DNA of 64,000 nucleotides from Candidatus Tayloriibacteriota bacterium (GTDB lineage Bacteria; Patescibacteriota; Minisyncoccia; Phycocordibacterales; SIBU01): NCBI GenBank assembly GCA_016188455.1, contig JACPHR010000018.1, positions 5,079 to 69,078 on the forward strand. Direction: 5' to 3'. Both the position numbers and the translations under genes were made by a program. The notes beneath the pieces were generated by a model that saw only the letters and a program-made list of their open reading frames with translations, was not told where the DNA came from and made no database searches. Positions 32,708 to 62,872 of the stretch are shown here, one piece after another (position 1 is the first letter of the stretch; each line of letters begins with the position of its first letter).

Positions 32708-33727
32708 TCAATTCATTTTGAGCAGGCACTTGATGAAAAATTTCAAGAGTGCGGGCCACTCTTCTTTTTTATTGAGGCATTTTGAAAGGGGAGAAGACCA
32801 GAATTTTTTCCAGCCGTAGAATCCGACCCGCGCGTTGGTCTGAAGGGTCGTTAGAAACCTCTCCGCCATCACTTCATTGAAGGTTTTTACGTCATACCTG
32901 TTGGTTTTACGATTGGCTTCAATCAGTTTCAGAAGCCACAGTTCGCGTCTGTCCATAAATTTTTTCACTTCTTCAGCCGTGCCGACAAAAGTGTAGCTCG
33001 CTCTGTGCAAGGCTAGTGCTTCCGCGTCAGCCCGCACACCCAGACCTTCAAGCTGGGAGAGTATAACCTGATTGACGGCCTGGCGCAGTAAAGCGCTTTT
33101 TCTGGTGGTGGTGTTTTCATTGTGGGCGCGGTATTTCAGGAGGATTTTCCGAAGGTTTTTCGCTTTCCATGTTTTGAGCATTCGCACCCACAAAGCGTAA
33201 TCTTCAGAAGTGCCTTCAATGTAGCCTTCCGGCGGAACGGCTTTTTTTCTGATTAGCAGGGAAGACTGGGCGAAACAGTTGCCGAAAAGCAGACGGATGG
33301 GAATTTTTTCGCTTGGAATTTCCTCTTGCCACCGAGCGCCGGTGGCTTTGCCGGTTTCGTCAATGACGGAGACGCCTCCCCCGACCAGGCCGAAATCCGG
33401 ATTTTTTTCCAGAAAAGCCACCTCCAGTTTCAGGCGGTCTTTGAGGGCGATATCGTCAGAGTCCAAAGGGGCGATGAATTCGCCGCGACTGGCTTCAAGT
33501 CCGTGATTGCGCGATTCCACAATGGTAGTTTTCTTATCGCTCTGCAAAAGCACGATACGGGTGTCGGCAAAAGACCTGATAATCTCCAAACTTTTATCGG
33601 TTGAGCCGTCGTTTATGATGAGCAGTTCAAAGTCCGTGAAGCTTTGGTTCAGAACGCTTTGAATGGCCAGCCGAAGGTATTTTTCGCTGTTATAGACGGG
33701 CATAATGACGCTTACACGCGGGTTCAT
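32708..33727 (-). CDS. Family 2 glycosyltransferase
   Basis: VSVIMPVYNSEKYL...LLIINDGSTDKS and DSDD motif. Confidence 0.7.
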   Translation of the reverse strand: MNPRVSVIMPVYNSEKYLRLAIQSVLNQSFTDFELLIINDGSTDKSLEIIRSFADTRIVLLQSDKKTTIVESRNHGLEASRGEFIAPLDSDDIALKDRLKLEVAFLEKNPDFGLVGGGVSVIDETGKATGARWQEEIPSEKIPIRLLFGNCFAQSSLLIRKKAVPPEGYIEGTSEDYALWVRMLKTWKAKNLRKILLKYRAHNENTTTRKSALLRQAVNQVILSQLEGLGVRADAEALALHRASYTFVGTAEEVKKFMDRRELWLLKLIEANRKTNRYDVKTFNEVMAERFLTTLQTNARVGFYGWKKFWSSPLSKCLNKKEEWPALLKFFIKCLLKMN

Positions 33728-34587
33728 AAAGTTTGTAAAGTTATAAAGTTTGGTGACAGGAGGCCGGTTTTTCTAGAAAGATCCACGAACCATTTCTTGG
33801 GCGCGATGACTATTTTCCGCGGGTTTTGGTTGAGCCAAGCGCCCCACCAGCTCATAGTGGAGTTGGCGATGATGTTGTGCCGGCACCGGCTCATCAGCGC
33901 CAATTCTTCACAGTCGCCGATTGCCGGTCGGGAAACAAAAGTGACCGCGTAGTCTTTCGGAAAATGTTCCTTCGCCCAAAGGATGTCGTCCGATGATACG
34001 AAAAAGCGGGCATCGGGAAAGTTTTCAAGAATTTTTTCGCAGGCGGCCTTGTAATAGGCGAGCGGCAAAACTCCGTGGCGGTCGGTGATTTTTTTTATGG
34101 CAACATAGTCGCCGCGGCGGATATGGAGGCTCGTGCCGTTCGGTTCGCGCGCCATTCGCGCCGCCATCTTTTCCGCCTCGCGGCCGAAAGGGTTTTTCAA
34201 AGTGAAGTTCTCCCGGACTTTTTTTTCATAACCTTTGAAGTACCGCTCGTCCTGCCAATGGCCGTCAAAATAGCCGTCATCGCGCTTTAAGATTTCCGGG
34301 TCAAAGGCGAAAGATTTTTCCAGAACCGTTTTCTTTTTTAAGTCCGGCCGAAAACGGTCCAGCATTTTTTGAAGAGTGCCGCGATAGGCGCGGATTTCAT
34401 CCGCGCTCGCCTCAGGGGCGGCGACGTTGAGTCCGTCGAGCAGGAAGGAACGACGGCTTTGATTGGGGGAGCGGAGGTAGGAAGAGTCAATTTTGAGTGG
34501 CGCATTGTGCCGCAATGAAAGCCCGCACCCGAGGGCGTATTGGAACATTTGATTGCCGAGGCCGCCTTGTAATTTAACGATAATCAT
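33724..34587 (-). CDS. Alpha-1,2-fucosyltransferase (GT11)
   Basis: GGLGNQMFQYA N-terminal motif, HIRRGDY, ...IIANSTMSWWGAWL GT11 motifs. Confidence 0.8.
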   Translation of the reverse strand: MIIVKLQGGLGNQMFQYALGCGLSLRHNAPLKIDSSYLRSPNQSRRSFLLDGLNVAAPEASADEIRAYRGTLQKMLDRFRPDLKKKTVLEKSFAFDPEILKRDDGYFDGHWQDERYFKGYEKKVRENFTLKNPFGREAEKMAARMAREPNGTSLHIRRGDYVAIKKITDRHGVLPLAYYKAACEKILENFPDARFFVSSDDILWAKEHFPKDYAVTFVSRPAIGDCEELALMSRCRHNIIANSTMSWWGAWLNQNPRKIVIAPKKWFVDLSRKTGLLSPNFITLQTL

Positions 34588-34671
34588 GGCAGATATTATA
34601 ACCCAAGGCTGGTTCCTATGTTGTATCTCAAAAATAAAAGGCTTGCTCCGTGAGAAGCAAGCCTTTGCGCG

Positions 34672-35199
34672 TTAAACCTTAAGGAACTTTTTTACCATCG
34701 CCACTAGGGTGCGGTGGTGAGGGATGGTGTGTCGAGGGAGGTTATTGATGGGGAAGAATTTACCCCCTTCAAGAGCCTCGCCCCTGTATTCCACCATGTA
34801 AAGGTGGGCCAGTTCGTGCCCGCGTCGGCAGTGGTTCCGGCCATCGCCTTTGAGCAGGTCGCGAACACCGACGAAATGCAACTTGCCGAAGTCCTTGCCT
34901 TCGCAGAACACTTCGCTTTTGAGGAGGCGCCTGTAGGCCTCAGCCGTGGTTTCGTTTTGCCGGATAATCGTGCCCGGCTCGTTCCACATGTTCGGCCAGA
35001 ACTTGTCTTTTGGCCCTCGATTAGTCATGAAGACTTCCCAGTCGGTATGCGACAATCGCACAACGGCGAGCTCAAAGGCGACATGGGGCAGGTTCTCCAC
35101 CCAGCCGTCAAATGCCGGCCGAGGTAGAGGAAATTTGGCTTTCGCCAGGAGCTTTCCGAGGAGCACAGCCTCGGATTCCAAAAGACCTTTCTTTTTCAT
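34672..35199 (-). CDS. Hypothetical protein, weak Nudix-like box (possible GDP-sugar hydrolase)
   Basis: ...NEPGTIIRQNETTAEAYRRLLKSEV loosely fits GX5EX7REUXEE. Adjacent to the fucosyltransferase. Confidence 0.25.
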   Translation of the reverse strand: MKKKGLLESEAVLLGKLLAKAKFPLPRPAFDGWVENLPHVAFELAVVRLSHTDWEVFMTNRGPKDKFWPNMWNEPGTIIRQNETTAEAYRRLLKSEVFCEGKDFGKLHFVGVRDLLKGDGRNHCRRGHELAHLYMVEYRGEALEGGKFFPINNLPRHTIPHHRTLVAMVKKFLKV

Positions 35200-36864: not shown

Positions 36865-36867
36865 AGT

Positions 36868-38766: not shown

Positions 38767-39729
38767 TCAAGCGTAGAGGATTTTAAAAGCCAGGGTTCTA
38801 ATCAGGCTGTGTTTTTTAAGGTCCAGATTTTCCGCCGGCATGCCGGGATTCAAAAATCTAGCGACGGTAGGGATATTTGAAGCGCCGTGGAGCATGAACG
38901 CGCATTTGGCCAAAAGCAGGCAATCAATGAGCACTTCCTCCGCCAGCATTCGGCGATTATTGGTTTTCATAAACCTAATACCCGCGACCGTGACATCCTG
39001 CTGGGTAGAATAGGCGACAAGCTTGTCCCCGTAACGCCTCTTAAACGCCTTGAGAGTGGCCGGGTCGTCGGTCGCCAGAAATATTTTAGAGAAGTTGCCG
39101 CCAACAAGCAAGCGGTCAATTTTCTCAAAATAGCCTTGGAGCGGATATTTGATGAAATACGGGTCGGGTTTGCCGGTGGCGCCGTGGGCCATTCTAAAGG
39201 CGTCAAACGCTCCGCGGTATTGCACGGCAAGACATCTTTTTCCTTTGAGGCGGGCGGTGTAAAACTGTGCCACTTTGTCCAGAATTTCTTTTTTAATCCG
39301 GAGGCGGTCATTAAACACTCGATGAAAAAGTTTTCGCTGTCTTTGGCTTAAGTCGGAGTAGGGATTGCGGTGCATTCTCGTCAGAAAAAGATAGCGGTAT
39401 ATCTTTTTTGACTGCGGAGTGTTTACCACCGGTTCAAAACAGTATTGCCACATATTTTCTTGGGGCGAGTCATTATAAACCGTATGGCGATAATCAACAA
39501 AAATATCCTTTTCGCCGTTAACGGAAATGAGATAGAGCACCTCGCGAACGAAAGAGAAAAAGCCGCGGCCGACGGACGGCTGGTGGCTGGTGTCGTTTAT
39601 GAATACCGCCTCCGAGCTCACGCGCCGGACCTTCAAGGCGTTTCGCGCCGACAGGCCAAAATCGGCAAGCGTGTCGGATAAGAGTCGCATCCGAAATTTT
39701 ATTTTTGGCCACATCTTGCGTATGCCCAA
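38767..39729 (-). CDS. Hypothetical protein (possibly glycan-related)
   Basis: 320-aa soluble ORF, no confident family assignment. Confidence 0.3.
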   Translation of the reverse strand: MGIRKMWPKIKFRMRLLSDTLADFGLSARNALKVRRVSSEAVFINDTSHQPSVGRGFFSFVREVLYLISVNGEKDIFVDYRHTVYNDSPQENMWQYCFEPVVNTPQSKKIYRYLFLTRMHRNPYSDLSQRQRKLFHRVFNDRLRIKKEILDKVAQFYTARLKGKRCLAVQYRGAFDAFRMAHGATGKPDPYFIKYPLQGYFEKIDRLLVGGNFSKIFLATDDPATLKAFKRRYGDKLVAYSTQQDVTVAGIRFMKTNNRRMLAEEVLIDCLLLAKCAFMLHGASNIPTVARFLNPGMPAENLDLKKHSLIRTLAFKILYA

Positions 39730-43218: not shown

Positions 43219-44469
43219 ATGTCTCTAATTACGATGAAGGTTACTAAGACTAAAACAAAAAAAAATATCCGGGTACCCTATCTTTTGACCGTTTACGGCA
43301 AGGAGGAGATAAAGGCGGTCAATGAAGTTTTGAAAGACCCGACCAAAATCTCAAGCGGGCCAAGGGTGCGCGAATTTGAACAAAAAATCGCGGGGATGTT
43401 CGGCAAAAAATTCGGCGTCATGGTCAATTCCGGTTCCTCGGCCAACCTTTTGGCCGTGGACGCGCTTAACATGCCCAAAGGTAGCGAAGTCATCACCCCA
43501 ATTCTCACTTTTGCCACTACCGTCTCGCCCATCGTGCAGAGGGATTTAGTGCCGGCTTTTGCGGATGTAGAAGAGGGAACTTACCAGATTAATATAAACC
43601 AGATTGGCAGTTTGCTTTCCAAAAAGACCAAGGCGCTCATGATCCCGTCTCTCATTGGCAATATGGCCGACCTTTCTAAACTGAAAGCTTTCGCGAAGAA
43701 ACACAAGCTTTGGTTCATTGAAGATTCCTGCGATGTGCTGGGCGCCAAATTTGCCGGCCGGCCGACCGGAAGCTATTCGGATGTTTCCACCACCAGCTTC
43801 TACGCCGCCCACGTTATCACCACCGCGGGCGCGGGCGGCGTGGTGGCCTTTCACGACGGCGCGCTGGCCAAGCGGGCCCTTATCAAAGCCAACTGGGGGA
43901 GGGAGTCAACGCTTTTTGGTTTTTACGAAAAATCGGAAGAGCTAAAGAAACGTTTCGCCGGCGCACTCGGGGGCATGCCGTATGACGCCAAATTTATTTT
44001 CAGCGAACTGGGCTACAATTTTCAGTCAACGGAAATCAACGCCGCTTTCGGTTTGGAGCAACTCAAACGATTCCCGAAATTTGTCGCCCGCCGCAAACAA
44101 AACGCGGCGGCGCTCTTAAAATTTTTCAAACGCTATGAAGCCTTTTTCATTTTGCCGGTAGAACACCCCAAAGCAGAAACTTTCTGGCACGCTTTTCCGC
44201 TCACTATCAGAAAAGGCGCCCCATTCACCCGTCTTGAGATTACGAAATATCTTGAGGAAAGAAATATTCAAACCAGGCCGATTTTTACGGGCAACATTTT
44301 GAGGCAGCCGGCCTTCCGCCATATAAAAGCCAAGACGTTAAAAGAGGGCTATCCCGTGGCCGACCATATTATGCGCAACGGGTTTCTGATAGGGTGCAAT
44401 CATGGATTGGGAGAAAAACATATTGCCCATCTGTTCGATTCTTTTGAGCAGTTTCTCAAGAACAAATAA
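43219..44469 (+). CDS. DegT/RfbH-family PLP-dependent enzyme (CDP-6-deoxy-hexulose 3-dehydrase / sugar aminotransferase-like)
   Basis: About 416 aa with ...VNSGSSANLLAV... and ...DSCDVLGAKF... (Lys region); the length fits RfbH/DdhC-type. Confidence 0.6.
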   Translation: MSLITMKVTKTKTKKNIRVPYLLTVYGKEEIKAVNEVLKDPTKISSGPRVREFEQKIAGMFGKKFGVMVNSGSSANLLAVDALNMPKGSEVITPILTFATTVSPIVQRDLVPAFADVEEGTYQININQIGSLLSKKTKALMIPSLIGNMADLSKLKAFAKKHKLWFIEDSCDVLGAKFAGRPTGSYSDVSTTSFYAAHVITTAGAGGVVAFHDGALAKRALIKANWGRESTLFGFYEKSEELKKRFAGALGGMPYDAKFIFSELGYNFQSTEINAAFGLEQLKRFPKFVARRKQNAAALLKFFKRYEAFFILPVEHPKAETFWHAFPLTIRKGAPFTRLEITKYLEERNIQTRPIFTGNILRQPAFRHIKAKTLKEGYPVADHIMRNGFLIGCNHGLGEKHIAHLFDSFEQFLKNK

Positions 44470-51161: not shown

Positions 51162-52292
51162 TCAAACTTGGAGCGATGTTTCAGAGGCCGCTTTAGGTAT
51201 GTTCAACACCGCCATTATCCGGTCGCAAAAATAGGCTGGAGAGAATTGTCCGAATCGGCCGGTTTCAAGATACGTCTGTCCAGCGCTAATCATTTTTCGG
51301 TATTCTTCTTCGGTGACGCTTTTCAAATATTTCGCCAGGGCGGCGTCGCTCTTGAAACGGCGGCGGTCGACGAACGCTTCCCGGTCAACATAGGTTTCTA
51401 TATTGGAAGCTCCCCAATAGATCGGCACGGTGCCGGCTTGAATGGTATCAAATATTTTCTCTGTTATATAGCCCTTGGTGCCGGAGAGGTTTTCGTAGCA
51501 CAGGGCGAATTTATAACGGGACAGCGTCTCCATTTTGTCTTGGCTCACGCCGCGCCAGCAGGCGAACTTGGGTATCAGCGCCGGGAAGTATTTTTGCCAG
51601 CGCGAGGTCGGCGTGTGCCACCTCGCACCGAACAGGTCAAAATCGTCAGGGTAGTGCGAATCGAAATAAGCGCTGGTTTTTGCCCTCGCGGAGTACAGTT
51701 CGCGCGGCCTTGGATAGTAGCGGTTGGCCGACATGTTGACGAGCAGTTTTTTTTCTTCAAACGGCAAAGGGTTTTTCCGCGGCGGCCTCGTCGGGGTCGG
51801 CAGGAAAAATTTAAAAAACTTTTTGTCGTCCACAAGGTCGTCGTCCCAGGTGAAGATGGTTTTAAATTTGTCCCACACCCGAGGGCTGTAGTTTAGCGGG
51901 TTGTTCACTTTTCCTTCCCAAAGGATAAGCGCCATTTTATCCCCCATGTTTTTTTGGAGCGCTTCCTCGTAGAGCGGCCGCACCGGCCAGCCGCGGCGGT
52001 CTTTGATGCCGAGGATTTTTTTGAAAAATTCTTTGATTCCGTATGCCGGCTGGTCCAACCCGAGGCTTGACGAATCAAAAAATAATATCCAGGCGCAGTC
52101 ATCCAGGGGGTTGTCGTCCGCCGTCATGAGGTTATAGCCACGTAACGCCAACCGCCGTTTCAGTTCGCGCCACGGCTCGTTCATGCCGTTTTTGTCGGGG
52201 CCAAAGATGGCGTTGTGGGCCAGGGATTTGTGCGACACATGAAGAAGGATTTTTTTCATAGCGGTTTTTTCTTTAACGGCAGCGGTTTCCAA
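51162..52292 (-). CDS. Alpha-1,3/4-fucosyltransferase (GT10)
   Basis: YKFALCYENLSGTKGYITEKIFD...IPIYWG matches the GT10 motif (YKFxLxFENSxxxxYxTEK). Confidence 0.6.
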   Translation of the reverse strand: METAAVKEKTAMKKILLHVSHKSLAHNAIFGPDKNGMNEPWRELKRRLALRGYNLMTADDNPLDDCAWILFFDSSSLGLDQPAYGIKEFFKKILGIKDRRGWPVRPLYEEALQKNMGDKMALILWEGKVNNPLNYSPRVWDKFKTIFTWDDDLVDDKKFFKFFLPTPTRPPRKNPLPFEEKKLLVNMSANRYYPRPRELYSARAKTSAYFDSHYPDDFDLFGARWHTPTSRWQKYFPALIPKFACWRGVSQDKMETLSRYKFALCYENLSGTKGYITEKIFDTIQAGTVPIYWGASNIETYVDREAFVDRRRFKSDAALAKYLKSVTEEEYRKMISAGQTYLETGRFGQFSPAYFCDRIMAVLNIPKAASETSLQV

Positions 52293-53332
52293 ATGATGAT
52301 GGAATAGCCCTCAATAAACTGGCTGCCGATGCGGGTTCTTTTGGCTTCAATGATTTTGATTTTCTTTGCTTTTTCCAATTCTCTCAAATAATCAAGAAAG
52401 CCCTCCAGGTAATTTCTTTTTCTGAAGTATTTAATTGACAGGTTGTCAATCAGCCGGTCTTCGTTCAGCAATTCGGCGATCGGTTCAACGTGCAAGCAAA
52501 GCGCCGGTTGATTTTGGAGGAGATATGAAACAAAGGCCTTATATTTTATGCCAACTTGTTCCAGCGCCGCTGCGGTATAGATTGCCGAGTGGGCGGCCAG
52601 CTTGATTTTTTTGTTCGGCTTGAAAAAATCAAAATTATAACCTTTGATGTTTTTCACTAAATGAGCGTCAGCCATTTGCTTGATGATTCTTTGCGACGAT
52701 TTCGCCCAATCAAGACCGAAGAGGTTGGCGGACGGATTAACTTCGCGCGCCCTAAGAAGGTTGTGGCCGGTGCCGCAGCCGAACTCGTAGATATTCTCAG
52801 ATTTTCTCAAGTATTTATCAAAAACGTAATCAAGAATGACATAAAGCATATTTCTTTCGTAATTTGGCGAGGCGGCTCTGATGAACTTTTGGTCTAGCCG
52901 GTTAACCGGGTATTTGCCGTGGTAGCGGGGGAATACGGCATCAGCGGTTTTTTCTTTTCGGAGTCGCGTGAGATTTTGTCCCCAGCCTTTTTCCCACTGT
53001 TTCAACCGATGCGGCCCTGAATAAACCAAAGACGGGTCAAGCAGGGTGTTGATAATCTTGATGAAAACTTGTTCTTCCTCGCGTGTACTGAGCGGGCAAT
53101 AGGCCAGCTTGTAGCCGGCGATTTTATGTTTGACGTAGCCGCTCAATTTTTCACGCCAGAGCTTCTCTATCTCTTTGTAGCCTAGACGGACTTTTTTCAT
53201 TCGCAGTATCATACAGGATTGACGATTGTTTGACAAGTGTTGATAAATATGATAACTTACTATCCAGACAGAAACGGCGGCGCTTTTGCGGGTGCAGAAT
53301 ACGTTTGCTGTAGGGGATAAATTTGAAATCAA
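52256..53332 (-). CDS. Putative class I SAM-dependent methyltransferase
   Basis: ...YEFGCGTGHNLL... (motif I), DxA region. Confidence 0.45.
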   Translation of the reverse strand: MISNLSPTANVFCTRKSAAVSVWIVSYHIYQHLSNNRQSCMILRMKKVRLGYKEIEKLWREKLSGYVKHKIAGYKLAYCPLSTREEEQVFIKIINTLLDPSLVYSGPHRLKQWEKGWGQNLTRLRKEKTADAVFPRYHGKYPVNRLDQKFIRAASPNYERNMLYVILDYVFDKYLRKSENIYEFGCGTGHNLLRAREVNPSANLFGLDWAKSSQRIIKQMADAHLVKNIKGYNFDFFKPNKKIKLAAHSAIYTAAALEQVGIKYKAFVSYLLQNQPALCLHVEPIAELLNEDRLIDNLSIKYFRKRNYLEGFLDYLRELEKAKKIKIIEAKRTRIGSQFIEGYSIIIWKPLPLKKKPL

Positions 53333-54042: not shown

Positions 54043-54059
54043 GCCAGCAGTTTATCCAG

Positions 54060-54088
54060 AGCGCGCGACTTAGGGTTGCGCGCTTTTT
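54060..54088 (+). terminator. Rho-independent terminator
   Basis: agcgcgcgac-ttagg-gttgcgcgct followed by tttttctttt. Confidence 0.5.
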
Positions 54089-54093: not shown

Positions 54094-54172
54094 CGCCAGT
54101 TTTCTCTATTCTCTATTTTCTATTCTCTACTCTACTCTCTATTCTCTACCCTCTATTTTCTAACTTTCGGAT
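54094..54172. repeat. Short tandem CTATTCTCT/CTATTTTCT repeat tract
   Basis: tctctattctctattttctattctctactctactctctattctctaccctctattttc. Inverted and direct copies lie at 55074-55140 and 55203-55252. Confidence 0.6.
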
Positions 54173-55073
54173 AATTTTCCACAAACCAATTAACGGTCTG
54201 CTCTATGCCTCCGTCAACCGGAGTAAACTTAAAATCCGGCAGGTACTTTTTCAGTTTCGTTCCGTCCGACGGTTTGCGGAACTGGCCGTCGGGTTTAGAG
54301 CCGTCAAAAACGATTTTGCCCGTGAACCCCATTTTTTTGGCGATGACGAGGACGAGGTCGCGTATGGAGGTTTCAATACCGGAGGTAAATATGATCGGCG
54401 CTGACTCTTTGTAATTATCAAGCATCCACAGCGCCAGTTTGGCAATGTCATCCGTCAACACCAGTTCGCGCAAAGGTTTGCCGCTGCCCCAGACGACCAG
54501 GTCCGTATTATTTTTCTTGGCCAGGTAGCATTTATGGATGAGAGATGGCACCACGTGGCCGTCCGTGAAATTAAAATTATCATTCGGGCCGTAGATGTTT
54601 GTGGGAATGGCGATAATGTAATTGCAGCCCCACTCGCTGTTATAGGCGCTGCTTTGCACTTCAAGCATCCTTTTGGCGTAGGCATAGCCGAAATTTGAAG
54701 GATGAGGCGGGCCGTTATGCAGGTCTTTTTCGTTGAGCGGGTAGGGGCACTTGTCGGGGAAGACGCAGGTGGACATGAAAGAAATCAGTTTTTTGACGCC
54801 GGTCAATCGCGCCGCTTCCAAGACGTTGATGTTTATCATGATGTTGTTGCGGAAGTATTCCCCGGAGTGAATCATGTTGCCGCCGATGCCGCCCACTTGG
54901 GCGGCCAGATGAATCACTTTCGCCGGCCGGTGCTTTTTGAAGAGCTTCACGGTTTGGTTAAAATCGGTCAAGTCGCCGTCTTTCCGAGAAAGAAAAACCA
55001 TATTTGGCAGACCCAATCTTTTAATGGCCGAACCGATAAGGCCGCTGCCTCCCGTGACTAATGTTATAGACAT
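54153..55073 (-). CDS. GDP-L-fucose synthase family epimerase/reductase (paralog)
   Basis: ITLVTGGSGLIGSAI...YAYAKRM...NIYGPNDNFN...HVVPSLI pattern of Fcl/WcaG. Confidence 0.65.
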   Translation of the reverse strand: MSITLVTGGSGLIGSAIKRLGLPNMVFLSRKDGDLTDFNQTVKLFKKHRPAKVIHLAAQVGGIGGNMIHSGEYFRNNIMININVLEAARLTGVKKLISFMSTCVFPDKCPYPLNEKDLHNGPPHPSNFGYAYAKRMLEVQSSAYNSEWGCNYIIAIPTNIYGPNDNFNFTDGHVVPSLIHKCYLAKKNNTDLVVWGSGKPLRELVLTDDIAKLALWMLDNYKESAPIIFTSGIETSIRDLVLVIAKKMGFTGKIVFDGSKPDGQFRKPSDGTKLKKYLPDFKFTPVDGGIEQTVNWFVENYPKVRK

Positions 55074-55252
55074 AGATAATAGATGTTAGAAAACAGATAA
55101 TAGACGGTAGAAATTAGAGAATAGAAAATAGAGATTAGACTTTTTAAGAAATTGCCTTGATAAATTTGTTAAGCATTTTCGTAATTATTAGTTTTCATTT
55201 CTTTCTGTGTTCTATTTTCTATTCTCTACTCTCTATTTTCTATTCTCTCATA
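55074..55252. repeat. Inverted pair of CTATTTTCTATTCTCT-type repeat tracts with a 70-nt AT-rich spacer
   Basis: gagaatagaaaatagag (55115-55131) opposed to ctctattttctattctc (about 55225-55245). Confidence 0.55.
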
Positions 55253-56266
55253 TAAGATTTTTTGCCACTCTACAGTGCGAGAGAGTCCCTCGTCAAGCGG
55301 CACATAATCGGTTTTCTTGAATTCATTTTTCACTCTCGTCATATCTAGTTGGGTATCAAGTGGCGCGCCCGCTCCCAAGTTCTCTGATCTTGAAACCGCC
55401 GGAAAAACCACCGGCACCTTGAGCAATTTGCCGATTTTCTTCGCTAAGTCAGCAATGGTGATGGTTCCCGCGCCGCCGACATTGTAAATTGGTTCTTTGC
55501 CGAAAAGCAGTATCCGCCAGAGAATTTCCACGGCGTCGCTTACATAACAGTAGGTTCTTTTAACCTCACCATGATCCAGGAGCGTTAATTTGCCCCGCAG
55601 AGCTTTTTCAATGAAAGCATTGATAACCCGCTTGTCTCCCGGTTTCGTGCCGGGACCGTAGGCTAACGATAGCCGCGCCGATTTTGCGTCAACGGCTTGG
55701 GCTCTTTCGGCGTTGACGATGGCCTCTCCGCATCTTTTGCCCTCAATGTAGCAAGCTCTCGGGTGCGCGGTGTTTGTCGTGCCTATCATGTCCTCCCCGT
55801 AGGGGGTCGTCTCCAATCCGCTGTAGACTTCGCTGGTGCTCATAAAAAGGAACTTGCCGCCCTTCTTTAATTTTTGAAAGAGAGCGATGGTCACTGTCGT
55901 GTTAAGCCCCATGGTTTTTAGGGGATTCTCCAGAAATTTCCCGGGTTGGCCGTAGCCGGCGGCATGGATAATATAATCCGCTTGGGGCAGTGAGGCCATC
56001 AGTTTCGCATTGGTCAAATCGCCCTGTACGAAGCCCACATTTTCTCCAAAATAAGAAAGATATTCGGGAAATTTATTTTGCACGACGGCGACGATATCCA
56101 TCTTCACGCCTTTGTTCCGCAGCTCTCTTAAAGTTGCCAAAAAATACGTGCCAATGAGCCCGGACGCGCCAGTCAAGAGTATGGTTTTGCCGTCAAGTTC
56201 GCGAAAATCAATCTTCGGCAAGATTTCCAAAACGTCATTTTTAATTATGGTCGCAAGCTCATTCAT
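55226..56266 (-). CDS. NAD-dependent epimerase/dehydratase
   Basis: ILLTGASGLIGTYF..., YxxxK (YIEGKRCGE). Confidence 0.65.
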   Translation of the reverse strand: MNELATIIKNDVLEILPKIDFRELDGKTILLTGASGLIGTYFLATLRELRNKGVKMDIVAVVQNKFPEYLSYFGENVGFVQGDLTNAKLMASLPQADYIIHAAGYGQPGKFLENPLKTMGLNTTVTIALFQKLKKGGKFLFMSTSEVYSGLETTPYGEDMIGTTNTAHPRACYIEGKRCGEAIVNAERAQAVDAKSARLSLAYGPGTKPGDKRVINAFIEKALRGKLTLLDHGEVKRTYCYVSDAVEILWRILLFGKEPIYNVGGAGTITIADLAKKIGKLLKVPVVFPAVSRSENLGAGAPLDTQLDMTRVKNEFKKTDYVPLDEGLSRTVEWQKILYERIENRE

Positions 56267-57147
56267 TGCAATAATTTTCTCAAGCGGCGGCGGATAGATG
56301 AAGCGGTGATTGCCATACGTTCGTCATGCTCTTCCGCCTTGCCGTAGTTGAGAATAAATTTTCGAGGTACTCCCGCCGTTTCAACAACCAGAGGGCGAGG
56401 TTTCAGCGCGGCCGTGACTTCGTTCGTTAAACCGCCTTCGTAATAGGGCTCACAGAGTAAAACCTTTGCCGACGGGCAATTGTTTCTCAAGGTCTCTCCG
56501 TCAAAAGGAGCGACGGTCGTGTAATAAAGCACCGTCACGTCTTCGCCTTTAGAGGCTTCAAGCGCGCTCTTAAGCGCCGGACCAACGGCGATGACCGTGG
56601 CCTGCCTGCCTTTTTTTACCACCTGGGCCTTGCCGAATCTGACCTTATAACTTTCGGCGTTTTCTTTTTCCGAGAGCCGGTAGTATGTCGGGTGGCCGTT
56701 GCCGTAGGCTTGCCTGAAAAGAGCGTCAAATTCGGCGGCGGTTCCCGGCACCACTATCTCCATCCCGGGGATATTCTGGAGGAGGCCGACATCCCCCGGG
56801 CAGTGGTGTGTTGGGCCGAGGGCGGCGTAATCGTAGGATGCTCCGATGCTGACAAAATTGCCTCCGAGTTTTTGATAGCCGAAGTCGTCTTTCAATTGCT
56901 CAAAAGAGCGTTCTACCAAGAAAGTGGCGATGGTGTGGACTACCGGAATAAATCCCGTCATGGCCAATCCCGCCGCCGCGCCTATCGTGGATTGTTCCAA
57001 AATTCCTATATTGTAAATTCTCTCGGGGAACTCCTTGAATGATTTTCGAAGAGCGAACACACTGATGTCGCCTAGGAGTACGACAAGACGCTCGTCGCTC
57101 GCCAGCAAGCTTTCAGTGGTTTGAACGAATTGTCTTCTCATGCTCAT
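56263..57147 (-). CDS. Transketolase, C-terminal subunit (split transketolase)
   Basis: Pyrimidine-binding/C-terminal domain pattern (...GPTHHCPGDVGLL...). Sits directly downstream of the N-terminal subunit gene. Confidence 0.7.
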   Translation of the reverse strand: MSMRRQFVQTTESLLASDERLVVLLGDISVFALRKSFKEFPERIYNIGILEQSTIGAAAGLAMTGFIPVVHTIATFLVERSFEQLKDDFGYQKLGGNFVSIGASYDYAALGPTHHCPGDVGLLQNIPGMEIVVPGTAAEFDALFRQAYGNGHPTYYRLSEKENAESYKVRFGKAQVVKKGRQATVIAVGPALKSALEASKGEDVTVLYYTTVAPFDGETLRNNCPSAKVLLCEPYYEGGLTNEVTAALKPRPLVVETAGVPRKFILNYGKAEEHDERMAITASSIRRRLRKLLQ

Positions 57148-57282: not shown

Positions 57283-58062
57283 TCATGACGGGGAAAGTTC
57301 TTTTAAGATAATTTCCAGTTCTTCCCTGTTGGGCGCTTTGTGGTGCCAGGCCGGATTGTTTTCCATGATTTTTGAGCCGCGGCCTTTAATTGTCTCGGCG
57401 ATTACGGCCAAGGGCTTGCCGAGGTGTTTCGTTCTCAAGGCTTTTTCAATCGCTTTGTGGTCGTGGCCGTCTACCGAGACGCTCGTCCAGCCGAAAGCTT
57501 CAAACTTAGTCCTAAGGTCTCCGAGGCGAAGCGCCCGGTCGGTGGAATGATTGTAGTCCAGGATAAGCGAGAGGTTGTCCAGCTTGTGGTGGGCCGCCAA
57601 GAGCGCCGATTCCCAGACGGCGCCTTCGTTGGCCTCGCCGTCGCCGATAAGCACGAAGACGCGGGAGGGAAAGTGCTTAATCTTGAGCCCTAAAGCGTTG
57701 CCTACCGCCATGGGAAAGCCGTGACCCAGAGAGCCAGTGGAGGCTTCGGCGCCCGGCACTTTGTTTCTGTCCGGATGGCCGCCGAGACGGCTTTCAAAAT
57801 CACAGTATTTTTTCAACCACTCGCCGCTGAAGAAACCCTTTTCGGCCAAAACGGCGTAGAGGGCGAGCGACGCTTGGCCTTTGGACAGAAAGAATCTGTC
57901 CCTCCTCGGGTCGTCTGGGCGCTTCGGGTTTATGGCGAGTACCTTGTCGTAGAGGACCCAGAGGATGTCCAAAATGGAAAAATCGCTTCCGAGGTGCCCC
58001 TCGCCGGCGTGGAACGACGCCTTGACTATCAAACGTTTTAATTTGTTCAGGTTAGCTTTCAT
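57283..58062 (-). CDS. Transketolase, N-terminal (ThDP-binding) subunit
   Basis: ...HAGEGHLGSDFSILDIL..., ...GDGEANEG... ThDP motif. Confidence 0.7.
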   Translation of the reverse strand: MKANLNKLKRLIVKASFHAGEGHLGSDFSILDILWVLYDKVLAINPKRPDDPRRDRFFLSKGQASLALYAVLAEKGFFSGEWLKKYCDFESRLGGHPDRNKVPGAEASTGSLGHGFPMAVGNALGLKIKHFPSRVFVLIGDGEANEGAVWESALLAAHHKLDNLSLILDYNHSTDRALRLGDLRTKFEAFGWTSVSVDGHDHKAIEKALRTKHLGKPLAVIAETIKGRGSKIMENNPAWHHKAPNREELEIILKELSPS

Positions 58063-59353
58063 CGGATTGCTTGTTTTGGTCAGAGACTAATTTTAAGGTC
58101 CACCGGTTTTTTATGAAAATTTTTCCTTCCGGTTTTTCCGCCGGATGCGCCTGGTTGAAGTACGCCGACGGCCCGACGGTTACGGTTTTTTCTATGGTGT
58201 GTTTAGCGAGATAATTCATGACCGAAAAACGATTCAGGCTTAAACTGACGAAATAATTTCCCGGCATCAGCAATTTTTCCGGGAACAGCAAAGTTGCTTG
58301 GTATCTGCCCTTGGCGACCCGTTCAAGTTCCGGCTGCCAGTCGGAAGTGAAACTTCTTGTTAGCACGTCGCCAAGGGCGTTTTTTAAGTACACGCCCGCG
58401 CGGAAAAGCGAAAGGTTGGCGTGCGCCTCAAAGTCAATTTCAACGGTAAACGGCGTGTCCGCGTCCAAATGGGCCGTACGGATGTTTTTCTGGCTTACCG
58501 CGAAATCATGAAGTGTCACTTCGCCTTTAAGTTTCAACGGAAAAAGTTTTTCGTGGCCGGAGCTTTTTTCGTACTCGGCGGCCAGATAATGCCGGATAAC
58601 GTCTCTCGTCTCGCCCGCTTTGACGATTTTGCCGTGAGACAGAAGAATTGATGTGGGGCAAAGCTTTTCCACCGCTGACATATTGTGGCTGACGAAAAGA
58701 ATCGTCCGGCCGGCTTTGCCGGTGACCTCTTCCATTTTACCCAAACACTTTTTTTGAAACTCGGCGTCGCCGACGGCCAGCACTTCGTCAACCAGAAGGA
58801 TGTCGGGTTCAATGTGGGCGGCGATGGAGAAAGCCAGACGGACGTACATGCCGGTGGAATAGCGTTTGACCGGCGTATCAATGAAATCGCCGATGCCGGA
58901 GAAATCAACGATGGCGTTAAATTTCTCTCCGATTTCTTTGCGAGTCATGCCCAAGATGGCCCCGTTGAGGAAGACATTTTCGCGGCCCGACAGCTCGGGA
59001 TGAAAACCGGTGCCCACTTCCAGGAGCGAGGCCACCCGGCCGTTCAGTCTGACTTCCCCTTCGGTCGGCGGGGTGATTCGGGAGAGAATTTTCAGCAGGG
59101 TTGACTTGCCGGCGCCGTTAGCCCCGATAATGCCCACCGCTTCGCCTTTTTTGACTGAAAGGTTTATGTTTCGCAACGCCCAAAAAGTTTCCATTCGGTT
59201 TGTGCCCATGATGTTTCTGCCGATGCCCGCCAGCGCCGAGAGCGGATGTTTTAATTTTTCCGATATTACGTCGCGCAGCGCTACGTATCCCCGTTTCCTT
59301 CCGGTGATGTTATAACGTTTGCCGACGTTTTTTATTTCTATAATGGATAACAT
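58052..59353 (-). CDS. wzt: Polysaccharide ABC transporter ATP-binding protein with C-terminal carbohydrate-binding domain
   Basis: Walker A GANGAGKST, LSGGQ-like YSTGMYVRL, Walker B ILLVDE, plus an about 180-aa C-terminal extension typical of Wzt/TagH. Confidence 0.75.
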   Translation of the reverse strand: MLSIIEIKNVGKRYNITGRKRGYVALRDVISEKLKHPLSALAGIGRNIMGTNRMETFWALRNINLSVKKGEAVGIIGANGAGKSTLLKILSRITPPTEGEVRLNGRVASLLEVGTGFHPELSGRENVFLNGAILGMTRKEIGEKFNAIVDFSGIGDFIDTPVKRYSTGMYVRLAFSIAAHIEPDILLVDEVLAVGDAEFQKKCLGKMEEVTGKAGRTILFVSHNMSAVEKLCPTSILLSHGKIVKAGETRDVIRHYLAAEYEKSSGHEKLFPLKLKGEVTLHDFAVSQKNIRTAHLDADTPFTVEIDFEAHANLSLFRAGVYLKNALGDVLTRSFTSDWQPELERVAKGRYQATLLFPEKLLMPGNYFVSLSLNRFSVMNYLAKHTIEKTVTVGPSAYFNQAHPAEKPEGKIFIKNRWTLKLVSDQNKQSDES

Positions 59354-59854: not shown

Positions 59855-59900
59855 TTCGTTGTAATTCGTCATCATTCGCATAATTTTCGTATGTTACACG
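59855..59900. repeat. Inverted partial copy of the TACGAA-motif repeat
   Basis: Reverse complement cgtgtaacatacgaaaattatgcgaatgatgacgaattacaacgaaaatt. Confidence 0.4.
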
Positions 59901-60709
59901 ATGTCCGCGAAATACCGTTCGGTTTTTTTGAAAAAGAAAATGCCAGCGGCCAAAAGCGCCAGGGCGGCCAAGGAGGAAATCGCCAGCGACTGCCAGCCTA
60001 TCGGTCCCGTGCCCAAGAGCCCCGCCCGGGCGGCTTTGATGACGCCGGTCATGGGATTAAAAGAGAGCAGCCAAGCGTATTTGCCGGCGATGCTTGAGGG
60101 GTAAATGACCGGCGTGAGGAAAAGCAGCAGTTGCATGAAGAAAGGCAATACGTAGCGCACATCGCGGTATTTGACGTTTATGGAGGCTAGTATCAATCCC
60201 GCGCCCACCGCCGTGGCGGAGGTGATAATCAAGAGAATCGGTATAAGCGCTATCCCGGAGAATCGCGGCGCGTAGCCGTAGTGGAACATGAGGAAGATTA
60301 AAGCCAGGCTGGCGAAAAAAAGGTCAACGAATTTGTTGGCGGTGTCGGCCAGCGGCAGAATGATTCGCGGGAAATAAACTTTGGTGACGATGGCGGCATT
60401 GCCGATGAGCGAGTTGCTGGTATCGCTCAAGGCGCTCGCGAACAGTTGCCAGAATAAGAGGCCGGTATAGACGAAGATGGGGTAGGGAATGCCGTCCGAC
60501 GGCACCTTGATCAGTTTTCCGAAGAACACGCTGAACACCACCATGGTCATAAACGGCTGGAAAATGGCCCAGCCGATGCCGACAATGGTTTGTTTGTAGC
60601 GCACCTTGATGTCGCGCCAAACGAAAAAGTACAGCAGTTCTTTGTAGCGCCAGATTTCCCTCAAGTCTTCAAGGCTGAAGGTTTTTTTTGGTTTTATTAC
60701 AGTTACCAT
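59894..60709 (-). CDS. wzm: Polysaccharide ABC transporter permease (ABC-2 type)
   Basis: Six predicted TM helices; ...LLYFFVWRDIKVRYKQTIVGIGWAIFQPF... typical Wzm N-terminus. Confidence 0.7.
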   Translation of the reverse strand: MVTVIKPKKTFSLEDLREIWRYKELLYFFVWRDIKVRYKQTIVGIGWAIFQPFMTMVVFSVFFGKLIKVPSDGIPYPIFVYTGLLFWQLFASALSDTSNSLIGNAAIVTKVYFPRIILPLADTANKFVDLFFASLALIFLMFHYGYAPRFSGIALIPILLIITSATAVGAGLILASINVKYRDVRYVLPFFMQLLLFLTPVIYPSSIAGKYAWLLSFNPMTGVIKAARAGLLGTGPIGWQSLAISSLAALALLAAGIFFFKKTERYFADIV

Positions 60710-60770: not shown

Positions 60771-60815
60771 AATGAAAAAGAAATGAAAAGGATATAATAT
60801 TGGCGGTACTGGTAT

Positions 60816-61745
60816 TTATTTATTTTGTTTATACCACTTATAGGTGGACCGGACACCCTCTTCAAGCGGGATTTGGTGGCGCCAGCCCAGAGCGTGAATT
60901 TTTGAGACGTCAAGCCGTTTCCGGGGCATGCCGTCCGGGTTTTTCCCGTCCCAGACGACCCGGCCCTTAAAGCCCACGATTTTTTTTATCAGTTGGGCCA
61001 GTGCTTTGATGGAAATATCTTCCCCGGTGCCGACATTTATAATTTCGCTCCGGTTGTAATGCTCCATCAGAAAAACGGCGGCATCGGCGAAATCGTCAAC
61101 ATGGAGAAATTCCCGCCGCGCCACGCCGGTTCCCCAGAGGGTCAATGCTTTTTTGCCGGTTTTTTTCGCTTCATGAAATTTGCGGATGAGCGCCGGCAGA
61201 ACATGAGAGTTTTTAAGGTCAAAATTGTCATTCGGGCCGTACATATTTGTCGGCATGGCTGAAATAAAATTGGTGCCGTATTCCTCGTTATAGGACTGGC
61301 AGCTAATAATGCCGGCGATTTTGGCGATGGCGTATGCCCTGTTGGTCGGTTCCAGCGGACCGGAGAGGAAGTACTCTTCCTTAATCGGTTGCGGCGAGAG
61401 GCGGGGATAGATGCATGAACTGCCCAGGAACAGCAATTTTTTGATGCCGCTTACGTAGGAATTCTCTATGACATTTGACTGCACGACCAGATTTTCATGG
61501 ATAAACTCGGCCGGGTAATTTTTATTTGACATAATGCCCCCCACTTTGGCCGCGGCGAGAAAGACGTACTCCGGCTTTTCTTTTTTAAAAAAATCGGCCA
61601 CTTTTTTTTGGTCCAAAAGCTCCAGTTCGTCTCGGGTTCTAAGCGTCAGGTTCCCGAAGCCGCGCGCTTTAAGCGCCCGAACGATAGCGGACCCCACCAG
61701 CCCGCGGTGACCGGCAACGTAAACTTTTGAATGCTTCTTCATCAT
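60816..61745 (-). CDS. fcl: GDP-L-fucose synthase
   Basis: KVYVAGHRGLVGSAI...LTLRTRDELELLD...YAIAKIAG...NMYGPNDNF..., classic Fcl. Overlaps the gmd stop. Confidence 0.8.
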   Translation of the reverse strand: MMKKHSKVYVAGHRGLVGSAIVRALKARGFGNLTLRTRDELELLDQKKVADFFKKEKPEYVFLAAAKVGGIMSNKNYPAEFIHENLVVQSNVIENSYVSGIKKLLFLGSSCIYPRLSPQPIKEEYFLSGPLEPTNRAYAIAKIAGIISCQSYNEEYGTNFISAMPTNMYGPNDNFDLKNSHVLPALIRKFHEAKKTGKKALTLWGTGVARREFLHVDDFADAAVFLMEHYNRSEIINVGTGEDISIKALAQLIKKIVGFKGRVVWDGKNPDGMPRKRLDVSKIHALGWRHQIPLEEGVRSTYKWYKQNK

Positions 61746-62872
61746 TAGGCCTTTTTTATTCCGCCCTTGGCCAGCTCGCTTCGGAGAGTGCTCTCAATGT
61801 CCGCGGTCACCATTTCCTTGATGAGTTCGTGGAATTTTATTTTCGGTTTCCAGCCCAGTTCCTTAGAGGCTTTTCGAGGGTCGGCGCGCAGCGAATTGAC
61901 TTCCGCCGGTCGGAAATAGTTGAGGTCAATCGCCACTAGCACGTCTCCGGTCTTCGCGTCCACGCCTTTTTCATTCTGGCCGGCGCCGCGCCATTTCAGA
62001 GTGACGCCGATTTGCTTGAACGCCAGTTCGCACAATTGCCGGACCGAGTGCTGTCTGCCGGTGCCTATGACGTAATCTTTCGGTTTCGGCTGCTGGAGCA
62101 TCAGGTACATGGCTTCCACGTAGTCTTGGGCGTGGCCCCAGTCGCGGCGGGCTTCCAGGTTGCCGAGGTAGAGTTTGTTTTGAAGCCCCAATTTTATTTT
62201 TGCCACCGCCGACGTGATTTTTCGGCTGACGAAGGTTTCGCCGCGCCGCGGGCTTTCGTGGTTGAAGAGAATGCCGTTGACGGCGAAGAGGCCGTAGGAT
62301 TCGCGGTAGTTGATGGTGGCGTAGTAGGCGGCCGCTTTGGAAACGCCGTAGGGCGACCGGGGAGCGAATTTCGTGTTTTCATTTTGCGGCGGCGGAGCCG
62401 AGCCGAACATCTCGCTTGACGACGCTTGGTAAAATTTTACTTTCTTGCCGGTTTGTTTTTGGTAGTCGCGGATGGCTTCAAGGACGCGGAAGACCCCGAG
62501 GCCAGTGATATTGCCGGTGTACTCCGCCATGTCAAAGGACACTTTTACGTGCGATTGGGCGGCGAGGTTGTAAATTTCATCCGGTTCAAGGGTAAAAATC
62601 AGTTTCTTAATGTTGCTCGCGTCCGACAGGTCGCCGTAGTGGAGAAAAAGTCGGGTGCCGCGAATGTGCGGGTCCTGATAAAGGTGCTCAATCCGGCCGG
62701 TATTGAAAGTGGAAACCCGCCGGATGAGCCCGTGCACCTCGTAACCCTTTTTGAGCAGAAGCTCGGTGAGATACGAGCCGTCCTGGCCGGTGATGCCGGT
62801 GATGAAAGCGCGTTTAACTTTTTTAGTATTCTTTGTCGCGCGCGCGGTTTTCATTTTAGATTCTTTTTTCAT
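61745..62872 (-). CDS. gmd: GDP-mannose 4,6-dehydratase
   Basis: [28 protein letters not shown], ...FNHESPRRG.... Confidence 0.85.

Follow-up and report, generated by a model that had tools for sequence, protein, structure and literature searches.

Surface glycans that leave the cell through an ATP-binding cassette (ABC) transporter include the Wzm/Wzt-dependent O-polysaccharides of Escherichia coli O8/O9a and the methyl-capped surface-layer (S-layer) glycans (slg) of Geobacillus stearothermophilus and Aneurinibacillus thermoaerophilus. These are the nearest analogues of the system described here, which lies in a 64-kb stretch of contig JACPHR010000018.1 (hereafter the window) from a Candidatus Taylorbacteria genome (Patescibacteria, or candidate phyla radiation, CPR). 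Most of the window consists of genes for the synthesis and export of surface sugars. As in the O8/O9a and slg systems, the genes for a Wzm permease and for a Wzt ATPase bearing a carbohydrate-binding domain at its C-terminus share operons with nucleotide-sugar, glycosyltransferase (GT) and methyltransferase genes, and relatives of the cassette carry FdtA/FdtB-type and Wzy_C/TPR ligase-like genes. Unlike these systems, the sugar set is centred on fucose, three fucosyltransferase families are represented and the host is a Patescibacterium. Literature searches combining Patescibacteria with fucosyltransferase, and candidate phyla radiation with fucose, returned no paper on fucosylated glycans from these bacteria.

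The donor pathway can be compared with the gmd-fcl route of E. coli colanic acid (Gmd/WcaG) and of humans (GMDS/GFUS). Gmd of the window scores above its equivalog cut-off and two Fcl enzymes (Fcl-1 and Fcl-2) retain the catalytic residues, but here two synthases of different lineages stand in one operon, an arrangement kept in relatives. The window probably belongs to a very large island of cell-surface glycan genes, and the likely product is a fucose-containing glycan made by Gmd, Fcl-1, Fcl-2 and three fucosyltransferase-type glycosyltransferases, then methylated and exported via Wzm/Wzt.

Gene identities were assigned from a listing of open reading frames (ORFs), profile searches (Pfam, NCBIfam), PDB sequence searches and Foldseek searches with predicted models. 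Fcl proteins were typed by PDB bit scores and catalytic-residue patterns. Related loci carry L-numbers (L001 etc.). Relatives of GT10 are encoded in at least 588 loci of GTDB species representatives. Neighbour counts refer to 23 GTDB loci with GT10 at least 40% identical and to genes within 10 kb. The nearest relatives of the cassette are found in Taylorbacteria, Vogelbacteria, Paceibacterota, Minisyncoccia and other Patescibacteria, and where a record title names a source, it is groundwater or Lake Baikal. What is observed directly is the identity of the genes, the pattern of catalytic residues, the layout of the operons and the retention of the cassette in relatives.

Fucose synthesis and export genes share an operon

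Two operons on the minus strand carry the core of the system. Operon A contains, in the order of transcription, the following genes.

61745..62872, minus strand, gmd, GDP-mannose 4,6-dehydratase, first gene of operon A (TIGR01472; PF16363, E 4e-146)
60816..61745, minus strand, Fcl-1, E. coli-type GDP-L-fucose synthase, sharing one base with the end of gmd
59894..60709, minus strand, wzm, ABC-2 permease (PF01061), 85-91% identical in L001-L003
59426..59881, minus strand, PD-(D/E)XK_3 nuclease-superfamily gene between wzm and wzt (PF13366, E 3.5e-21)
58052..59353, minus strand, wzt, ABC ATPase with a C-terminal Wzt_C carbohydrate-binding domain (PF00005, PF14524)
57283..58062, minus strand, TktN, N-terminal chain of a split transketolase-like enzyme dependent on thiamine diphosphate (ThDP) (PF00456; PDB 6yak, E 1.2e-68)
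56263..57147, minus strand, TktC, divergent C-terminal chain of the split transketolase-like enzyme (PF02779, PF02780; PDB 6yaj, E 2.9e-28)
55226..56266, minus strand, SDR55k, extended short-chain dehydrogenase/reductase (SDR) nearest to UDP-glucuronate decarboxylase, UXS-like (PDB 2b69, E 2e-31; synteny)
54153..55073, minus strand, Fcl-2, human-FX-type GDP-L-fucose synthase of 306 aa, last gene of operon A

Between this operon and operon B lie an HD-domain gene in convergent orientation and a strong hairpin.

54058..54086, no strand assigned, hairpin with a 13-bp stem, candidate bidirectional terminator between the convergent Fcl-2 and HD genes
52256..53332, minus strand, methyltransferase-like protein, longest ORF 358 aa, 318 aa in the database call (PF13847, 28.3 bits)
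51162..52259, minus strand, GT10-family glycosyltransferase, 365 aa from the ATG at 52259, operon B (PF00852)
49136..51031, minus strand, fusion of NeuB, SAF and a xylose-isomerase-like TIM barrel, ulosonic acid synthase-like, 631 aa (PF03102, PF08666, PF01261)
48303..49130, minus strand, class I S-adenosylmethionine (SAM) methyltransferase (PF13489, E 6e-21)
47341..48219, minus strand, MptE-like (DUF115) protein (PF01973, 41.3 bits)
46392..47354, minus strand, GT2 glycosyltransferase (PF00535)
45688..46395, minus strand, DUF268 methyltransferase, last gene of operon B (PF03269, E 2.4e-13)

The position of gmd-fcl at the head of an operon with wzm and a Wzt_C-bearing wzt points to a surface glycan that depends on an ABC transporter. 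Wzt matches PF14524 with 37.1 bits (cut-off 30.4), and its NCBIfam matches are export ATPases for teichoic acid and galactan. The nuclease-superfamily insert is absent at that position in L001-L004 and falls outside the conserved cassette. Apart from the hairpin, a scan for promoters and terminators was uninformative. The NeuB fusion reaches 348 bits against TIGR03569, under the cut-off of 399.65, and is conserved as a fusion in L001 and L002. A CMP-sugar synthetase was not recognised in the window; L003 has one beside a short NeuB.

The order gmd-fcl-wzm-wzt-(tktN-tktC-SDR)-...-GT10-MT-NeuB-MptE, with MT for methyltransferase, is kept in L001-L004, loci in which GT10 is 84%, 63%, 60% and 49% identical. 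Across the 23 loci Wzt is found in 14, Wzm and Fcl-1-type synthases in 12 each, and Gmd, GT11 and TktN/C in nine each. The gmd-fcl-wzm-wzt...GT10 cassette recurs across Patescibacteria, often together with a GT11-GT2 pair and several methyltransferases, and the DUF268 methyltransferase adjoins GT10 in L006, L015, L017, L018 and L023.

Gmd reaches 551.2 bits against TIGR01472 (equivalog cut-off 415), with residues 20-361 aligned to positions 1-341 of the 342 in the profile. Fcl-1 matches E. coli GMER (PDB 1bsv) at E 1e-113 and scores 475.9 bits against NF047922, with the motifs GSSCIYP, YAIAK and NSHV intact. Fcl-2 is nearer to human GDP-fucose synthase (4e5y/4bkp, E 1e-100; 340 bits to human GFUS) than to the E. 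coli enzyme (1e-54); it scores 233.8 bits against NF047922 and has intact MSTCVFP, YAYAK and DGHV motifs. In GDP-fucose synthase, reduction depends on Ser107/Tyr136/Lys140 and both epimerisations on Cys109/His179 in E. coli numbering (PMC7949155). Both the triad and the pair are kept in Fcl-1 and Fcl-2, and likewise in the orthologues of L001-L003. At least 7920 homologues of Fcl-2 were found, almost uniformly 306 aa long and 69-73% identical across phyla (Omnitrophica, Desulfobacterales, Methylomonas). Such a huge, near-uniform family, staying about 70% identical across phyla, argues that Fcl-2 is an ordinary FX-type fucose synthase. The public annotation of Fcl-2 is likewise "GDP-L-fucose synthase", and that of GT10 "hypothetical protein"; public records MBI2476220.1, MBI2476223.1 and MBI2476183.1 are 100% identical to the GT10, Fcl-2 and Fcl-3 proteins, respectively.

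The preliminary description of this DNA had already pointed to a heavy investment in fucosylation. The six genes it named (Gmd, three Fcl-like proteins, GT11 and GT10) were all found on the minus strand, at the reported positions or close to them, with scores far beyond chance. Its gmd-fcl pair at 60816-62872 is borne out by a Gmd above the equivalog cut-off and an E. coli-type Fcl-1 with all catalytic residues, and its count of at least three Fcl paralogues by the three found (60816-61745, 54153-55073 and 13093-14028), the other two being 38% and 32% identical to Fcl-1. Judged from sequence, the investment was even understated, with Gmd, two catalytically intact synthase-type enzymes and three rather than two fucosyltransferase-type glycosyltransferases.

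Three fucosyltransferase-type families

The GT10 protein is encoded in operon B. The preliminary description placed its gene at 51162-52292; the gene holds, but its start does not, as 52292 is the TTG of the longest ORF. The start most likely lies at the ATG at 52259, in view of homologues of about 355-365 aa, a database cluster member of 365 aa and an ATGA overlap with the upstream stop codon. That stop codon belongs to the methyltransferase-like gene, and in this arrangement the two genes appear translationally coupled. The methyltransferase-like gene co-occurs with TktN, TktC and SDR55k in relatives.

GT10 matches PF00852 over residues 250-331 with 61.2 bits (cut-off 23.9), a domain found in all but one of the 120 homologues listed. 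The previously reported motif YKFALCYENLSGTKGYITEK is present in the translation and aligns with residues 223-297 of H. pylori FucT, the aligned GT10 residues being 251-326 (CYEN...GYITEK against CFEN...GYVTEK). Equivalents of FucT Asn240, Tyr246, Glu249 and Lys250, which we take to be the GDP-fucose-binding residues, are all retained. In 22 members of the GT10 family, CYEN never varies at Glu-Asn, and TEK is at least 90% conserved at both Glu and Lys. The N-terminal (acceptor) half has no detected sequence similarity to H. pylori FucT or to other characterised enzymes. The AlphaFold model (predicted local distance difference test, pLDDT, 91.5) has a GT-B fold, and its top Foldseek match is H. 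pylori FucT (2nzx, E 4.5e-12); it also matches FUT9 and mango FucT13, and the non-GT10 GT-B enzyme SenB scores similarly. Compared with H. pylori FutA/FucT, GT10 therefore shares the GDP-fucose-binding stretch and the GT-B fold, while the N-terminal half is unlike in sequence.

The other two families are encoded elsewhere in the window, together with two neighbours of GT11.

38767..39729, minus strand, GT23-like (NodZ/FUT8-like) fucosyltransferase-type protein, probable start Met6 at 39714 (family profile, model)
34672..35199, minus strand, NUDIX hydrolase upstream of GT11 (PF00293, 23.1 bits)
33724..34587, minus strand, GT11-family glycosyltransferase, alpha-1,2-fucosyltransferase type (PF01531)
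32708..33727, minus strand, GT2 glycosyltransferase overlapping GT11 by 4 nt (PF00535)

GT11 scores 88.9 bits against PF01531 (cut-off 23.9). The motifs GGLGNQMFQYA and HIRRGDY given in the preliminary description are both in the translation, and the full set of family motifs is present (GGLGNQMFQYA, HxRRGDY, SDD, STxSWW). Residues 3-267 are 33% identical to H. pylori FutC (E 3e-40, with a FutC reference sequence that may be inexact), so that similarity extends along nearly the full length with all motifs kept. No homologue of GT11 came up in a sequence search of the PDB.

The GT23-like gene adds a third fucosyltransferase type to the two described previously. By itself the protein matches NodZ at E 0.0015 with 17.8 bits, below the Pfam threshold of 28.3. 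Its family has 1629 proteins at E of 1e-3 or better, and 37 of the 42 members sampled match Pfam NodZ. The family profile finds NodZ (E 2.5e-27) and FUT8 (E 7e-18) in the PDB over almost the full length. The predicted model (pLDDT 85.2) has FUT8 and NodZ as top structural matches, and the top 50 Foldseek matches in the PDB are all FUT8, NodZ, POFUT1/2 or plant FUT1. By profile and model the ORF is thus classed as a distant GT23-like protein. The protein shares with NodZ and FUT8 the invariant Arg of the GVHxRG motif, but its motif reads AVQYRG (His to Gln) and identity to solved structures is just 13-16%. NCBIfam has no model matching the GT10, GT11, GT23-like or NUDIX proteins.

The preliminary description treated GT10 and GT11 as one locus. 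Here they are not one transcription unit: they lie 16.6 kb apart, and nadE (40210-42105, plus strand) stands between them. In several relatives, however, both occur in one cluster on the same strand. The GT11-GT2 pair recurs in seven loci (L004, L013, L015, L017, L018, L020 and L023), in several of them within one same-strand cluster with GT10, which makes the neighbourhood of the two families a recurrent feature of Patescibacteria. The housekeeping gene nadE (NAD synthase) sits in the middle of the island, and at the same position in L001.

A proposed pathway and its weak points

We suggest that Gmd would convert GDP-mannose to GDP-4-keto-6-deoxymannose, and that Fcl-1 (E. coli-type, beside gmd) and Fcl-2 (human-FX-type) would convert this intermediate to GDP-L-fucose. 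GT10, GT11 and the GT23-like protein (GT-B type), with several GT2 and GT4 enzymes, would assemble the glycan, bound to a lipid carrier, on the cytoplasmic side. Four or five methyltransferases, one of them translationally coupled to GT10, may modify it. The chain is probably methyl-capped, recognised by the C-terminal carbohydrate-binding domain of Wzt and exported via Wzm/Wzt. Patescibacteria are not known to have an outer membrane. In a cell that lacks one, attachment at the surface would most plausibly be to an S-layer protein or a wall-linked glycan. The donor sugars, the methyl capping and the surface acceptor are what we infer in this scheme.

Several points weigh against the scheme. 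All three Fcl-like proteins miss the equivalog cut-off of NF047922 (500 bits), a model that appears tuned to the E. coli type. The scheme gives no reason for two intact fucose synthases and no role to the transketolase-like module that separates wzt from GT10. Sequence does not reveal which donors and acceptors the glycosyltransferases use; members of the GT11 family can accept GDP-colitose as well, and the window encodes a 3-dehydrase. Neither an initiating phosphoglycosyltransferase nor a ligase or other attachment enzyme was recognised inside the 64-kb window, beyond which the contig of 90,688 bp extends; in L003 and L006, Bac_transf and Wzy_C genes flank the cassette.

A split transketolase-like module beside GT10

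The module suggests an alternative in which GT10 installs a modified sugar instead of plain fucose, made by TktN/TktC, SDR55k, a second SDR (here Fcl-2) and the methyltransferase-like protein. This sugar could be a two-carbon-branched, methylated deoxy sugar derived from a nucleoside diphosphate (NDP)-4-keto intermediate. In the corresponding route, which would be new, an NDP-4-keto-deoxy sugar of a cell-surface glycan would receive a two-carbon (hydroxyacetyl) branch from a ThDP enzyme of the transketolase family, and reduction, methylation and transfer by GT10 would follow. We regard both the modified sugar and this route as unlikely.

The genomic context favours the idea. The block TktN-TktC-SDR55k-(SDR)-MT-like-GT10 recurs in nine of the 23 close loci and across phyla, including a Bacteroidota metagenome-assembled genome (MAG; L031) and an "Eubacteriales" MAG (L021), and SDR55k is always accompanied by TktN/TktC. 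Loci with the split transketolase and a UXS-like SDR between wzt and GT10 are L001-L004, L013, L015, L016, L019, L021, L023 and L031. More distant Tkt-like pairs adjoin GT10 in four further lineages (Bdellovibrio, Bacillota, Spirochaetales and Chitinophaga), with an E1/ColD-type dehydrase nearby in three of the four loci, Bdellovibrio being the exception. The coupling of the methyltransferase-like gene to GT10 fits as well.

TktC itself is divergent. It has SIGASYDYAALGPTHH and YYRLSEKE where the split transketolase of C. hydrogenoformans has ATHAGLTVGEDGASHQ and YIRLGRSG. The THxx..GEDGxxHQ and S/G-R Arg motifs of the Pyr domain presumably bind the sugar phosphate in canonical transketolases. 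The canonical THxxxGxGEDGxxHQ and RxGR-type Arg motifs are replaced in all 11 aligned cassette orthologues of TktC, L015 being gapped over the first motif. Judged from these replacements, the TktN/TktC pair could be a keto-sugar branching enzyme and not an enzyme of the pentose phosphate pathway. A housekeeping pentose-phosphate transketolase, considered as an identity for TktN/TktC, is weakened by the replaced motifs and by the cassette in a Bacteroidota MAG.

In the making of miharamycin and amipurimycin, a keto-sugar branching step has been proposed, though not demonstrated, for split-gene transketolases; the 13 candidates listed earlier are all from Streptomycetes (PMC12247030). These enzymes, with the YerE-type ThDP branching enzymes of lipopolysaccharide sugars (PMC12247030), are the closest comparison for the module. 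The likeness lies in a split transketolase-family ThDP enzyme inside a cluster for deoxy sugars and glycosyltransferases, adjoined in distant relatives by an E1/ColD-type 3-dehydrase. Unlike the natural-product enzymes of Streptomycetes, the module stands in a cell-surface glycan cassette of Patescibacteria, Bacteroidota and others.

Against the modified sugar, GT10 proteins of similar identity occur without the module, directly after wzt and beside gmd-fcl (L011, L012, L014, L018, L020 and L006). As these orthologues are equally similar, the GT10 family is independent of the module. Fcl-2 is about 70% identical to ordinary GDP-fucose synthases, and TktN is near genuine transketolases. The pair could still be metabolic, as Patescibacteria use the non-oxidative pentose phosphate pathway. 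Characterised enzymes of the postulated kind number none (PMC12247030), and literature searches for transketolase with GDP-4-keto-6-deoxy or with O-antigen gene cluster returned nothing relevant. If the route were real, the GT10 clade would be a branched-sugar transferase, and split-gene transketolases, hitherto proposed in nucleoside-antibiotic clusters of Streptomyces, would gain a first role in the cell envelope.

A 3-dehydrase and the colitose alternative

Plain fucose might also be accompanied or replaced by a 3,6-dideoxyhexose, if one of the intact Fcl proteins were a ColC-type GDP-L-colitose synthase paired with the 3-dehydrase encoded beside operon B.

43219..44469, plus strand, E1/ColD-type sugar 3-dehydrase dependent on pyridoxal/pyridoxamine phosphate (PDB 3bcx, E 8.6e-75; ColD 2gms, E 2e-46)
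44470..45456, plus strand, SDR directly after the 3-dehydrase (PF01370), with an 87% identical orthologue in the same arrangement in L001

The dehydrase has the diagnostic His in place of the usual Lys (SFYAAHVIT) and lacks the CxC or Fe-S cysteine cluster of E1, and its place beside operon B is kept in L001. The sequences of the pair at 43219-45456 suggest a branch towards a 3,6-dideoxyhexose. ColC is a homologue of Fcl, and some GT11 enzymes transfer colitose. However, the dehydrase is nearer to the CDP-specific E1 than to ColD, and its immediate partner is another SDR. A high-identity orthologue is found in L001 only, while Fcl-2 occurs in L002, L003 and L019 with no dehydrase within 10 kb. 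This inconsistent co-occurrence led us to set aside Fcl-2 as the ColC partner of the dehydrase and to retain colitose solely as a minor and improbable rival of the fucose-based glycan.

A predicted reductase-only Fcl paralogue

The third Fcl-like protein lies far from the two operons.

13093..14028, minus strand, Fcl-3, Fcl-derived SDR, predicted 4-ketoreductase only (residue pattern, clade conservation)
12221..13084, minus strand, uncharacterised 287-aa protein, conserved downstream partner of Fcl-3 (synteny; weak DUF218 match)

Fcl-3 has the lowest NF047922 score of the three (200.4 bits), and its best PDB match is 7ll6 (E 4e-45). Its motifs are GSVIEYP (Cys109 to Ile), YGLSK and SGYM (His179 to Tyr). 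The Ser/Tyr/Lys triad and GxxGxxG are kept and the ORF is intact. Among the 120 best homologues the Cys/His pair is absent in 34, down to about 50% identity and in several lineages of Patescibacteria, and the 17 closest (to 55% identity) are among them. These proteins carry Thr, Ile, Val, Met, Ala or Ser at Cys109 and Tyr, Phe, Asp or Gly at His179. Both residues are kept in 85 of the 120, mostly 44-51% identical and often named GDP-L-fucose synthase. With the triad kept, the epimerase pair lost and this loss conserved in a clade, we read Fcl-3 as a stable, neofunctionalised branch of a third Fcl lineage, and we predict that it acts as a 4-ketoreductase only and not as a fucose synthase.

The Fcl-like reductases DdahC (Thr/His) and MlghC (Tyr/Arg) of Campylobacter jejuni have no epimerase activity (PMC7949155). 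Like these C4 reductases of GDP-6-deoxyheptose pathways, Fcl-3 keeps the reductase triad and alters the epimerase positions (Ile/Tyr), and a gene set of heptose or octose type for nucleotide sugars lies 8-13 kb away. Unlike them, it stems from an Omnitrophota/archaeal-type Fcl lineage, with just 106 bits to PDB 7anh, and a cupin-type epimerase partner was not identified for it. We propose that Fcl-3 serves another deoxy-sugar branch, encoded at 12-27 kb. The partner at 12221-13084 is 85% identical and in the same position in a Liptonbacteria locus (L007), and in one relative the Fcl-3 homologue adjoins a sugar C-methyltransferase resembling that at 17763-19109.

The loss of Cys109 and His179 together with the lowest family score (200 bits) could also mark a degenerate, non-functional copy of GDP-fucose synthase. 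This is very improbable, as the ORF is intact with GxxGxxG and the Ser/Tyr/Lys residues present, the neighbouring gene is conserved, 34 of the 120 best homologues, from several Patescibacteria lineages, have lost the pair too, and DdahC and MlghC are active reductases without it; with changes conserved across a clade, a pseudogene was rejected. The preliminary description had considered that the paralogous reductases might make other 6-deoxy sugars. The idea finds support for Fcl-3, which has lost the Cys109/His179 pair, but not for Fcl-2, a member of a large conserved GDP-L-fucose synthase family. Rmd and GDP-6-deoxytalose synthase were both rejected as identities of Fcl-3. All its significant PDB matches are of Fcl or GME type, and the GDP-6-deoxy-D-mannose reductase 6x3b, a weak match to Fcl-1, is absent from its matches at E of 1e-10 or better, which argues for an Fcl derivative and not an Rmd-type enzyme.

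Some further observations concern this sub-cluster. In L013, L018, L021, L022, L033 and L035, gmd is paired with the third Fcl lineage (41-46% identical to Fcl-3) and not with E. coli-type Fcl. An IS200-like Y1 transposase gene (10580-11260; PF01797, E 2e-15) lies at the edge of the Fcl-3 sub-cluster. Weak DUF218-type matches are found in three proteins, at 12221-13084 (E 0.022), 24110-24919 (3e-5) and 31841-32599 (0.0013).

Lewis-antigen mimicry is not supported

The heptad-repeat C-terminus of FutA and homopolymeric phase-variation tracts are features of the H. pylori fut genes. These genes are not known to be clustered in H. pylori, and proximity of GT10 and GT11 is therefore no Lewis signature. 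A scan of GT10, GT11 and fut-like genes for a C-terminal heptad-repeat region, tandem repeats or C/G runs of at least 7 found none.

The preliminary description had read GT10 and GT11 in one locus as characteristic of Lewis-type mimicry as in Helicobacter. In such mimicry, GT10 (alpha-1,3/4) and GT11 (alpha-1,2) would fucosylate an O-antigen of N-acetyllactosamine type to resemble host Lewis x/y or a/b. Although both families are present with conserved GDP-fucose-binding motifs, we reject this reading as very unlikely on organism and habitat (a Patescibacteria MAG whose relatives with title-named sources come from groundwater and Lake Baikal, not from a mammalian host), on the extent of the GT10 alignment (just residues 251-326, the GDP-binding half, with an acceptor-binding half unrelated in sequence), on the missing heptad repeats and poly-C/G tracts, on the placement of the genes in a Wzm/Wzt polymer cassette with many methyltransferases, and on the co-occurrence of GT10 and GT11 in many environmental Patescibacteria. 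In contrast to FutA and FutC, the genes of the window thus stand without heptad repeats or phase-variable tracts in the polymer-export cassette of an environmental bacterium.

Other sugar branches in the window

Fucosylation is one theme within a broader investment in deoxy sugars. The window also holds rmlD/A/B-like genes (2007-4701), two NDP-sugar dehydrogenases, an aminotransferase and the C-methyltransferase (17763-19109). A cluster at 22452-27358 encodes a GHMP kinase, a SIS isomerase, an NTP-transferase, a HAD phosphatase and a divergent transaldolase/FSA-like protein (89 bits, cut-off 246). We take this set to resemble the GDP-heptose genes HddA/GmhA/GmhB/HddC or, with the aldolase, the GDP-octose set LmbR/N/P/K/O of lincomycin. 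The DegT/LegC-type aminotransferase at 15004-15924 starts at Pfam position 56 (NCBIfam 62-66), with about 55-65 N-terminal residues missing; 82 nt separate it from the upstream gene, and it may be truncated or mis-started. A perfect (AG)10 repeat (42387-42406) lies inside an ORF at 42135-42917 with a weak methyltransferase-like match. The region 5110-9815 encodes a membrane glycosyltransferase of PMT_2 (GT-C) type and a GT2-GT87 fusion of 734 aa, both candidates for glycan transfer on the outer side of the membrane.

Implications for Patescibacteria

All parts of the system belong to known families and are largely recoverable by standard annotation. What the analysis adds is the predicted reductase-only Fcl-3 clade, the overlooked GT23-like gene, a cassette conserved in Patescibacteria and an odd transketolase module. 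Patescibacteria are ultrasmall, and the cultivated ones grow attached to other microbes. Recognition of the host must take place through the cell surface, but the glycans there are essentially unstudied; a 2024 study of Saccharibacteria called glycosylation "unexplored". In this reduced genome, surface sugars take up most of 64 kb, where the genes cover three families of fucosyltransferase, two fucose synthases and an export cassette that is widely shared. The Fcl-3 clade with its natural, predicted reductase-only variants, the widespread GT10 clade and the divergent split transketolase are clonable targets. If the glycan is rich in fucose or methyl-fucose, lectins could serve to label or enrich these uncultured cells.

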